Made by a program: the position numbers and the translations under genes | Source of the DNA: Lingula anatina | Taxonomy: Eukaryota > Animalia > Brachiopoda | DNA: 64,000 bases | Reading direction: 5' to 3' | Assembly: GCA_051362555.1 (NCBI GenBank) | Contig: CM120648.1 | Location: 15,310,587-15,374,586 of the forward strand | Notes under the pieces: generated by a model | Seen by the model: only the letters and a program-made list of their open reading frames with translations | Database searches by the model: none | What the model was told of the DNA's origin: nothing | Part shown: piece by piece, positions 5,362 to 61,600 of the stretch | How positions within the stretch are numbered: position 1 is the first letter of the stretch | Layout of the letters: each line of letters begins with the position of its first letter

Positions 5362-5615
5362 CAGTTTTGACCTGTCATCAAGCTCTACCTTACCTTGGTC
5401 AAGCAGTTCTGACCTGTCCTCAACCTCTACCTTACCTTGGTCAAGCAGTTCTGACCTGTCCTTAAGCTCTACCTTACCTTGGTCAAGCAGTTCTGACCTG
5501 TCCTTAAGCTCTACCTTACCTTGGTCAAGCAGTTCTGACCTGTCATCAAGCTCTACCTTACCTTGGTCAAGCAGTTCTGACCTGTCCTCAACCTCTACCT
5601 TACCTTGGTCAAGCA
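5362..5615 (-). repeat. 42-bp tandem array spanning the Wnt4 exon 2 donor (6 donor copies)
   Basis: Minus-strand unit TGCTTGACCAAG|GTAAGGTAGAGxTTxAxGACAGGTCAGAAC. TACCTTGGTC recurs every 42 bp from 5391 to 5601. Confidence 0.97.
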
Positions 5616-5833
5616 CATTGCCGAACACTGACACTGGATCCACTGTGCTACAATTCCAGCGTCTGTTCTTAAACTGGTACTGACATTCGTCGATGGCAGT
5701 TCTTGCTCCCATAGTGACACTGTTCATTATCTCCACGTTCCTCTTACATAATACTTTCTGTCTGTTGTTAAGTCCTATGAGTTCGTCACAGATCTGCTCT
5801 GTGTTAATAGAGATTGAGCTCATTCCCAACGCC
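5604..5833 (-). CDS. WNT4: Wnt4-like coding exon 2
   Basis: Wnt N-terminal cysteine motif ECQYQFKNRRWNCST. Canonical AG/GT boundaries, with the phase-1 intron after G typical of Wnt genes. Confidence 0.93.
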
Positions 5834-58600: not shown

Positions 58601-61600
58601 TAAAAGCAATAGCTCTTTATCTTGACATGCAATTTTTGCACATTAAAGATTGTATGGCAAAATTCAAACATTGTCCTAAATCATTGTTATCAATTGTTAC
58701 AAAATTTTGTCAATTTTTATCAGTTATATTACTGGTATAGCTATAGTATTCCTATGGCATACATTTGTATATATGCTTTTAAAGTAAAGTTTACTTGCAT
58801 TTACATCATAGATTAATACTGTAAAAGTTTAGCCTGAATCAGTTATGTTTGTTACCTGTCACAGTAGCAGGCAGTTTTTTTATGGATTTTTTTTTCATTT
58901 TTAAAGTGTTTGCACAGTACATACAGGGTAGTCCATAAAAAAGAACCTATTTCACTTTCCATCTCAATTTTGATACAATTATTACAGATATTTCCAACTT
59001 TCTTGATGATTGAAATTTGATGATGATTGAAATTTGAGAGATTAAAAGTGTTCCAATTTCTGCAAGGATAAAATGGTCATCCTTATGGAACAATTTGGTT
59101 AAAAAGTTGGAAATATCTTAAATATATCAATATTGAGATAGGCCATTTTTTATGGACCACCCTGTATATAATAAGAGATGATCAGATGTTAATGTATAAT
59201 TTCCTAATTTCCCCCTCCAGGTCATAGTAGTGACGGATGGTGAGCGTATCCTGGGTCTTGGAGACCTGGGAGCCCAAGGGATGGGAATTCCTGTAGGGAA
59301 ACTGTCCCTCTATACCGCCTGTGCTGGGGTGGACCCACAACACTGTCTGCCTATTGTTATTGATGTTGGCACTGACAATGAAGTGAGTATCTTTTTTCTG
59401 TCCATTGTCATTGATGTCGGCTCTGACAATGAAGTGAGTGTCAATTTTCTGCCCATTGTCATTGATGTCGGCACTGACAATGAAGTGATTATCAATTTTC
59501 TACCCACTGTCATTGATGTCGGCACTGACAATGAAGTGAGTGTCAATTTTCTGCCCATTGTCATTGATGTCGGCACTGACAATGAAGTGAGTGTCAATTT
59601 TCTGCCCATTGTCTTTGATGTCGGCACTGACAATGAAGTGAGTGTCAATTTTCTGCCCATTGTCATTGATGTCGGCACTGTCTGTAACTGCAGAGATCAT
59701 GTTTGTGATTATTTTGTAAACATGATGACTAGACCCAGAAGATGATCACATGTCCCAATATTTACCTTAGTGATCCAGGCTATCCAGCTATGCCAGGGAC
59801 ACACAGATATGGAGGAGGTCAGTTAGTGAAACTGTCATTAGGTGCAGGGTCATATCCAACACACAAGCTTGATTAGATAACTTAATTTTTTATGTGGTGT
59901 ACAGCAAATACATGTGAGAAATAGGAGCTATTTGTGAGCTGAGTTTTATAGGGAAATAGATTCTGGCATTTTTATTGCAGCAACTGTAAAGATAGAATAT
60001 CAGTGGCTCTCACTGCTTTCGATTTAAGAAATTGATAAATTGATTTAATACACACAGTAAACTTAGAATTACTTAAGATTACATGTCTTGGCTTTCTTTG
60101 TCCCAAATATGCCCATGAAATACAACACTGCTGCTGTGCTGAATTATGCCCTGCTTTGGGGAGCCTTTTGATGCACAGTAAAATCTTCTATCTAGGGAGT
60201 TTCACCCCTCATGATTATGATCCAATAGCATCAGAAAGATTGGTAGGAATACAATTTTTTATCTATACGTAAACACATATATTTATATCCCTACAGACAC
60301 TGCTGAAAGACCCACTGTACATTGGACTGCCCCAGAAGAGAACGCGCGGAGAGAAATACGACCAGCTGATCGAGGAATTCATGCAGGCAGTGGTGAAGAG
60401 GTAAGTGTGGAATATGGGATGTTTTAACTGAAAAAATGCACCATTTTTAAAATACTTGATTGTCATCTGTTTGTGAGAAGAATTTTGAATGAAAATATCA
60501 TTTTTAGTAAAAAATATTGACTGGTATTTAGACTATATTACATATCATGAAAACAGAATTATTTTTCATAGCCTGAGTACTTTTGTGCCATTCCAAGGTG
60601 CTCAGTCGGGCAATTTATCACTGATATGGTACATTTTTTATATATTTATTGGCTAAATGCGTCTTAGTCTTATCTGATGTACAAGCATTGGCTTGAGTTT
60701 AAATTTACAGCTCGCCAGCTGCCTCTTGCTTGTTATCAGTGAATAAAAAGTGAAGTGTGATGAGATATGATTTCAGGTTTGGACAGAATACTCTGATACA
60801 GTTTGAGGACTTTGGTAATTCCAATGCTTTCCGCTTCCTGGAGAAATATAGAGGGCAATACTGTACCTTCAATGATGATATACAAGGTAATAACTTCCCT
60901 AAATGCTGAGGGACAAATACTTAAGGGACCTTTTGATTTGGACAATGTGAAACAACTTTTTTTTCTGTTGTCATGTGTCATACTTATTGCATATAGACAC
61001 CTCATTTAACCTACATTTGCTAATTCTGAGAGGTATTTAAGTATGGTATAGACACTGAAAAGTCTTCTCTTAGTTCATGTAAATTTAAAGAAGTGCTAAA
61101 AATTTTACATTATATTAAAATATCAACTTGAAAGAGTCTTTCACACTGGAGTGCACTGACATTGTATACTATAGGCACAGCGGCAGTGGCAGTGGCTGGG
61201 GTGTTAGCAAGTCTGAAGATCACAGGAAAGAAATTGTCAGAAAATATCATCCTCTTCCAGGGAGCTGGAGAGGTGAGCATGCTAGAAAGATTGGTTAGAA
61301 CACTCTACCAATTTTTTTGGGTCAATGAAATTTTCAGTTTGTGTTCATTATGTTCATTGAATATCTTTGAGTCTTGAGCTTTTGTAACTAGGGGTCTTTT
61401 GTATGTATGGGTGAAAATTTTCAGGATATATATTCCTGATTTCAGGATTTCCATTCTTCATTTTGATTGTCATTTCCATATGGTCTTAATGCAATGAGAA
61501 ATTGCAAAATCATTTTTAGGATTTTCATTTTTTACAACTATCGCCCATGTGTACCTGACTTTCAAGAACCATTTCATCCCTGTGCCGTATTATTCCAGGC

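Follow-up and report, generated by a model that had tools for sequence, protein, structure and literature searches.

The window analysed here is a 64-kb stretch of the Lingula anatina genome, chosen because it shows tandem arrays at splice junctions, and all window counts below refer to this single stretch. It contains four unrelated genes, namely a Wnt-family gene, a JmjC gene, GIGYF and malic enzyme, each of which carries an array at a splice donor. Gene models were built by hand and all of their exons are open when the first donor is used (25 exons for GIGYF, 12 for malic enzyme, 10 for JmjC and one exon for Wnt). Together the models hold 45 donors and 46 acceptors, a count from which a few Wnt junctions are absent because the other Wnt exons were not found. 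Three of the five exons submitted to Pfam gave matches (wnt, GYF and malic enzyme). The Wnt-family coding exon from whose 3' end the array derives lies on the minus strand at 5604..5833 (PF00110, E 2.7e-17); the match is at family level only, and the gene previously labelled Wnt4 is accordingly called Wnt here. No further Wnt exons came up when the first 12 kb of the window were scanned for motifs.

One JmjC exon is 100% identical to the Lingula anatina protein P0121, and seven exons match this protein at 94-100%. P0121 ends at the window exon 20640-20725 and the public record looks cut short, since the window has three further exons with RNA depth. The GIGYF model was checked by its open frame and by the Pfam GYF match; a protein search with one GIGYF exon returned no match. 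Within this gene, exons 10-12 (39486-40977) encode a glutamine-rich segment that, judging by the similar peptides of exons 10 and 12, seems internally duplicated at the scale of exons. The malic enzyme exon is only 70% like two Lingula proteins among the matches listed, so the gene in the window is probably another paralogue. It has two similar candidate first exons, 52390-52666 and 53836-53945, which encode the same final peptide. A mitochondrial leader may be encoded by the upstream exon; the downstream exon is joined to 56712, with a loose end, by 48 X12 RNA reads.

All four main arrays share a unit layout in which, reading with the gene, the last bases of a coding exon are followed by GT and a short stretch of intron. 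The Wnt array (5362..5615, minus strand) has 6 units of 42 bp, each with 12 exon and 30 intron bases, and its genuine donor follows 5604. In JmjC (18813..19181, minus strand), 5 units of 75 bp (55 exon and 20 intron) lie within the last intron of the gene model, the genuine donor follows 19127 and the final unit differs from the others at 13-15 positions. At GIGYF exon 22 (45855..46221, plus strand) the unit is 43 bp (39 exon and 4 intron) and there are eight donors, the genuine one after 45893; the first spacing is 36 bp and the others 43, and the array terminates in a decayed exon-like piece. The malic enzyme array (59346..59680, plus strand) comprises 6 units of 51 bp (37 exon and 14 intron) and a partial seventh without a donor; the genuine donor follows 59382 and the reading frame is open throughout. 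Tandem Repeats Finder recovered the four arrays at 5362-5615 (period 42, 6.0 copies, 95% matches), 18825-19181 (period 75, 4.8 copies, 94%), 45910-46198 (period 43, 6.7 copies, 98%; the array itself begins at 45855) and 59346-59680 (period 51, 6.6 copies, 92%). Together with the donor comparison, this reproduces the observation of an earlier note on this DNA that four unrelated arrays have one architecture of exon end plus donor. The places and periods given there stand; the Wnt donor at 5604 and the first GIGYF spacing of 36 rather than 43 bp are revised here.

The same note described the copies as near-identical and the GT as kept, and this is borne out: GT is present at 25 of 25 donor sites of the four main arrays, genuine ones counted, and the 9-mer of the genuine donor at 23 of them. 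Donor copies are identical at 6/6 sites in Wnt, 4/5 in JmjC, 8/8 in GIGYF and 5/6 in malic enzyme. Across all donor cases the units begin 12-57 bases inside the exon and end 4-30 bases into the intron, and only 1-2 bases are shared at unit ends (by eye), as chance gives. Units within an array differ at 0-15 positions. Inner copies are alike, end copies are the most diverged and variants recur in blocks; in the Wnt array, for example, units 1 and 5 are identical, as are units 3 and 4. Three of the five donor arrays, counting the smaller one described below, terminate in a partial or decayed exon-like piece and not in the remaining intron, a pattern that a single simple duplication leaves unaccounted for. 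Every array is a separate, locus-specific repeat family, and its units occur nowhere else in the window. If the first donor is taken as the one in use, the geometry implies that amplification ran downstream.

Smaller cases had also been proposed, and two of them are real. GIGYF exon 5 (34863..35074, plus strand; found by Tandem Repeats Finder and by the self-match scan described below) has a 79-bp duplication with one donor after 34918 and another after 34997, and in addition a decayed third unit that lacks GT. On the acceptor side, JmjC carries a duplication at 20691..20821 (minus strand) with an offset of 78 bp and the genuine acceptor before 20725. Its upstream copy has lost the AG, an exception to the retention of splice signals, and RNA depth in the bin 20748-20874 is 0, 0 and 0. 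Two further candidates were not accepted as firm members. The sequence at 33328..33380 (plus strand; score 25, local score 24), which resembles the end of GIGYF exon 2 and lies 34 bp downstream of it, is within chance, as the best unrelated junction scores 23. A 17-bp repeat found by Tandem Repeats Finder at 63590..63633 (plus strand) starts at the malic enzyme exon 11 donor, which RNA joins from 63590 to 63945, and is marginal, with about 1 exon base in the repeat.

To place these cases among all tandem repeats, the window was scanned for self-matches at all lags from 12 to 600 with a score of at least 44. The scan yielded 14 loci, of which 6 were set aside as microsatellite or low-complexity, leaving 8 complex tandem duplications. 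Six of these straddle a junction, at 5 of the 45 donors and 1 of the 46 acceptors, in agreement with the earlier statement that arrays straddle junctions save for a few stated exceptions. The other two lie inside introns: a 146-bp array at 38305-39159 and a two-copy 65-bp duplication at 46829-46948. The former, in GIGYF intron 9, has 5.9 copies with alternating unit variants and lies in a stretch that may be a transposon; it was counted against the junction claim. Other repeats of the window include a G-rich 62-bp array of 15 copies with many G runs in the first malic enzyme intron (55368-56320), possibly a G-quadruplex former, and a degenerate tetranucleotide microsatellite (19502-19655) that starts a few bases past the JmjC exon 8 donor. 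High-copy interspersed repeats, recognized by DNA depth, and a long hairpin-type element are found among 20113-20493, 18208-18461, 62242-63765 and 24630-24886.

In a placement test, units of the same length were placed randomly with wholly exonic places barred and the Wnt donor at 5604. At any junction, 6 of 8 duplications were observed against 0.79 expected (P about 2e-5), and at donors 5 of 8 against 0.40 (P 1e-5); over six ways of counting, such as restoring two low-complexity arrays or keeping only arrays with at least 3 copies, P ranged from 4e-6 to 1e-4. The proposed excess at junctions thus holds within the window, and these P values overstate the genome-wide case because the window was picked for showing the pattern. 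That selection is also one reason to consider that there is no targeting at all: duplications would arise everywhere, G+C-rich and complex exon units would expand and stay visible, and the window, having been flagged for the pattern, would be a picked extreme. The composition fits in part, as 4 of the 5 donor arrays have a GC content of 0.42-0.51, above the 0.39 of the whole window and the 0.36 of each non-junction duplication; however, the 43-bp array is itself at 0.36. Moreover, introns are far longer and duplications there would be equally neutral, yet only 2 of 8 lie away from junctions, and we regard this explanation as improbable.

Array copy numbers are those of this assembly, which raises the question of an assembly artefact. 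Units differ among themselves at 0-15 positions in patterned ways, and contigs from two other DNA samples, X4 and X3, enter the array copies from unique flanks. For malic enzyme, an X4 contig extends from the upstream intron across the exon as far as 59431, in the second copy, and another begins at 59651 inside the array; for JmjC, an X3 contig (18689-18886) spans flanking sequence and the last copy, showing 3 gaps and 0 differing letters. The arrays of these two genes are thus entered by contigs of other DNA, and an artefact is extremely unlikely. Short-read contigs break inside the malic enzyme and JmjC arrays, and DNA depth over both is near the flank level, unlike the true repeats nearby. 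A transposon origin of the arrays was rejected: the units match the host exon, dispersed copies are absent from the window and DNA depth over the malic enzyme and JmjC arrays is near that of the flank.

The X4 contigs also reveal how strongly individuals differ, by many substitutions and, outside exons, by many gaps (454 bases compared with the window hold 20 other letters and 23 gaps, and 878 bases hold 23 and 28). At 59352 and 59358, the exon of the window has T and the array copies have C. Array-type letters segregate as exon alleles at these two positions, because X12 spliced RNA and an X4 contig carry C in the exon; this reflects either shared ancestry or gene conversion, in either direction.

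Use of the donors was assessed in raw RNA runs labelled as the same species. In malic enzyme, 50 X12 reads with 29 different starts and a short side of up to 71 letters join 59382 to the next exon, on par with six other junctions listed for this gene (40-56 reads each in X12). Three X15 reads make the same joint, and X18 has none among the joints listed. No joint from a downstream donor copy appears among those listed (the best 15 of 46). Depth falls from 64 in the exon bin to 0.39 in the array bin 59448-59701, bounding donors 3-6 at about 3 reads or fewer against an exon depth of 59-123; donor 2 (59433) shares its bin with the exon, and depth sets no bound on it. X12 depth is 123 at 59352 compared with 85 at 59277, for which we offer no explanation. 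JmjC is represented by depth, its splice joints not being among the joints listed: the exon bin has 21-24 and the two array bins 0-0.69, which limits use of the second donor to about 3.4% at most (depth only, pooled over three runs of one study). Mapping RNA to the donor copies, as the earlier note had proposed, therefore points to the first donor in both genes, by junction reads in malic enzyme and by depth in JmjC. With near-zero depth past the first donor, the malic enzyme first-donor reads and a dead upstream acceptor copy, the donor ladders of malic enzyme and JmjC are largely silent in the runs sampled. The idea of ladders of competing donors does not agree with this near absence of RNA past the first donor.

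We also considered that the arrays supply functional alternative donors, with donor 2 in low or regulated use and 12-25 residues inserted in frame. In all four main arrays the second donor keeps the frame and meets no stop (offsets of 42, 75, 36 and 51 bases), and 5 of 6 duplications place the nearest copy in frame, at an offset divisible by 3 (a post hoc count; binomial P 0.018). In addition, the two nearest pseudo-sites are used in human CBS and 6-16 (PMC1557585). The in-frame excess sits badly with a purely silent model, which does not predict a frame bias, but it shrinks to 5 of 8 (P 0.09) once the two marginal cases are added. Given that substantial downstream use is seen neither in JmjC nor at malic enzyme donors 3-6, and that first-donor reads of malic enzyme equal those of other junctions, such a function is very unlikely.

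These features closely resemble those of the mirage minisatellites of lancelets, described at Adh3, the globins BflGb6 and BflGb9, troponin C and PGBD5 (PMC3087553, PMC3902484; the PGBD5 and troponin C cases are from PMC3902484, and Ebner et al. is cited on known mirages). Unit lengths in lancelets are 10-72 bp for Adh3 and 150-160 bp for the globins; both boundary types are affected, many copies keep splice signals and the mRNA is normal (PMC3087553, PMC3902484). In the globin mirages the end units are less homogenized and unit variants recur in blocks (PMC3087553), and somatic length instability is reported for Adh3 (PMC3087553, PMC3902484). Lingula agrees in having tandem units across exon-intron boundaries with a unit length in range, less homogenized end units, both boundary types, many copies with splice signals and normal mRNA. 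Specifically, the units of the window span the boundary head to tail at 42-79 bp, derive from the host gene and keep their splice signals, and mRNA is made from the authentic site (by reads in malic enzyme, by depth in JmjC). We therefore assign the arrays to the mirage-type, exon-intron-boundary class of minisatellites with a probability of about 0.95. The parallel to the amphioxus Adh mirages drawn in the earlier note is upheld in its defining structural features (PMC3087553, PMC3902484), and for the same reason the arrays cannot be called an undescribed system, the class having been named and described (PMC3087553, PMC3902484, PMC1557585). The hosts differ, a chordate in one case and a brachiopod in the other, and here all four genes of a 64-kb window and 5 of 45 donors are affected.

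Human boundary VNTRs with 5' pseudo-sites offer a second comparison: F7 intron 7 (37 bp), CBS intron 13, LMNB2, PDGF intron 4 and 6-16 (PMC1557585). As in Lingula, the true donor sits in the first unit, identical copies follow and the most upstream donor is used, which mutagenesis demonstrated for F7 (PMC1557585). The F7 unit includes 4 exon bases, whereas the Lingula donor units include 12-57, and the human cases described there are a handful of single genes, unlike the density in the Lingula window. A literature search found no report of mirages in Lingula or genome-wide, with most subscription journals and all supplements outside the search. What is new here is the brachiopod host, the strikingly high density, the possible in-frame bias and an orthologue with an array in the middle of an exon.

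This orthologue belongs to another animal. It turned up when metagenome contigs were scanned with a JmjC alignment, which gave 52 loci totalling 202 kb and falling into 35 clusters. Five loci of one cluster (L018, L020, L021, L022 and L024) share a roughly 90-bp array of exon sequence, GT and non-exon sequence that lies mid-exon (L021:85-520), with 4-8 core copies across the five loci as counted from the assemblies. The same exon is unbroken, with 50 residues, in L016, L025, L026 and L031. In L021, a predicted splice from the GT at 135 to the AG at 488 would restore the frame and give a 51-residue exon. A second exon-derived array of 4 core copies, spaced 102-118 bp, interrupts another exon of L021 (4650-5020) that is single-copy in L027 and L029. 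No comparable array was found at JmjC exon ends in the other 34 clusters, which are short assemblies tending to break at arrays. Further hits in L012, L025 and L049 were discarded as microsatellites or weak. A published model has introns arising when a tandem duplication spans a proto-splice site (PMC3087553; also PMC2812944). The Lingula arrays match the raw material of this model and differ in lying at existing junctions, with no new intron in the gene models of the window; the five orthologue loci resemble its outcome. Judged from these contigs, the mid-exon array of the L021 type is a candidate for intron gain from a mirage-type array.

The mid-exon position bears on a further explanation, along the lines of the earlier note, in which splicing or transcription gives rise to the arrays and donors are targeted through R-loops, breaks or paused polymerase at 5' splice sites. 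The tally of 5 donor cases to 1 acceptor case and the short reach of the downstream break into the intron (4, 14, 20, 22 and 30 bases) speak for it. Donor versus acceptor bias is, however, not significant (5/45 vs 1/46, Fisher P 0.11) and could be produced by selection, and the orthologue has arrays within exons at places where its relatives have no intron. We consider a splicing-coupled origin unlikely, if less so than the absence of targeting. Because the orthologue arrays arise mid-exon, the comparison suggests that duplications are seeded by exon sequence rather than by a splice site already present, and that their survival is settled by splicing.

The origin of mirages is called unclear in PMC3087553. 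For Lingula, we favor the following account. DNA synthesis during repair or recombination would start in exon sequence, which is alike between alleles, run 4-30 bases into the more divergent intron and re-anneal 36-79 bases back, leaving a duplicated junction. Slippage or unequal exchange would then multiply the unit, a process that fits the observed pattern of inner copies that are alike and ends that decay. Splicing at the first donor would let the copies leave with the intron, as seen for malic enzyme and JmjC. Donor arrays would be cheap because the most upstream of identical neighbouring donors is chosen, as in human F7; with the first donor in use, the arrays are likely tolerated, and they are likely harmless. 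Selection would filter the outcome: duplications wholly in exons would be lost unless spliced out, and acceptor-side duplications may persist mostly where the upstream AG has been lost, which is the state of the single acceptor case in the window. Block-wise recurrence of variants, divergent end units and strong individual differences count in favor of this account, and we rate the whole chain, from a repair or recombination slip out of the exon through minisatellite turnover to tolerance by first-donor use, as somewhat better than even.

Three points retain some interest, namely how duplications are targeted, whether in-frame offsets are favored and how the arrays relate to intron gain. With 5 of 45 donors bearing arrays, public RNA and divergent individuals, the targeting of exon ends becomes testable, and the same material makes it testable how often arrays become new introns. 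In practical terms, the arrays interrupt short-read assembly at exon ends and are a possible source of wrong gene models. More tentatively, and with the odds somewhat against it, a general mutational process at exon ends may operate across animals with very divergent alleles, in which about one in nine Lingula donors is duplicated, in-frame duplications are favored and mid-exon strikes lead to new introns, as L021 may exemplify. If true, mirages would be a genome-wide and ongoing engine of splice-site duplication and intron gain, well beyond lancelets.
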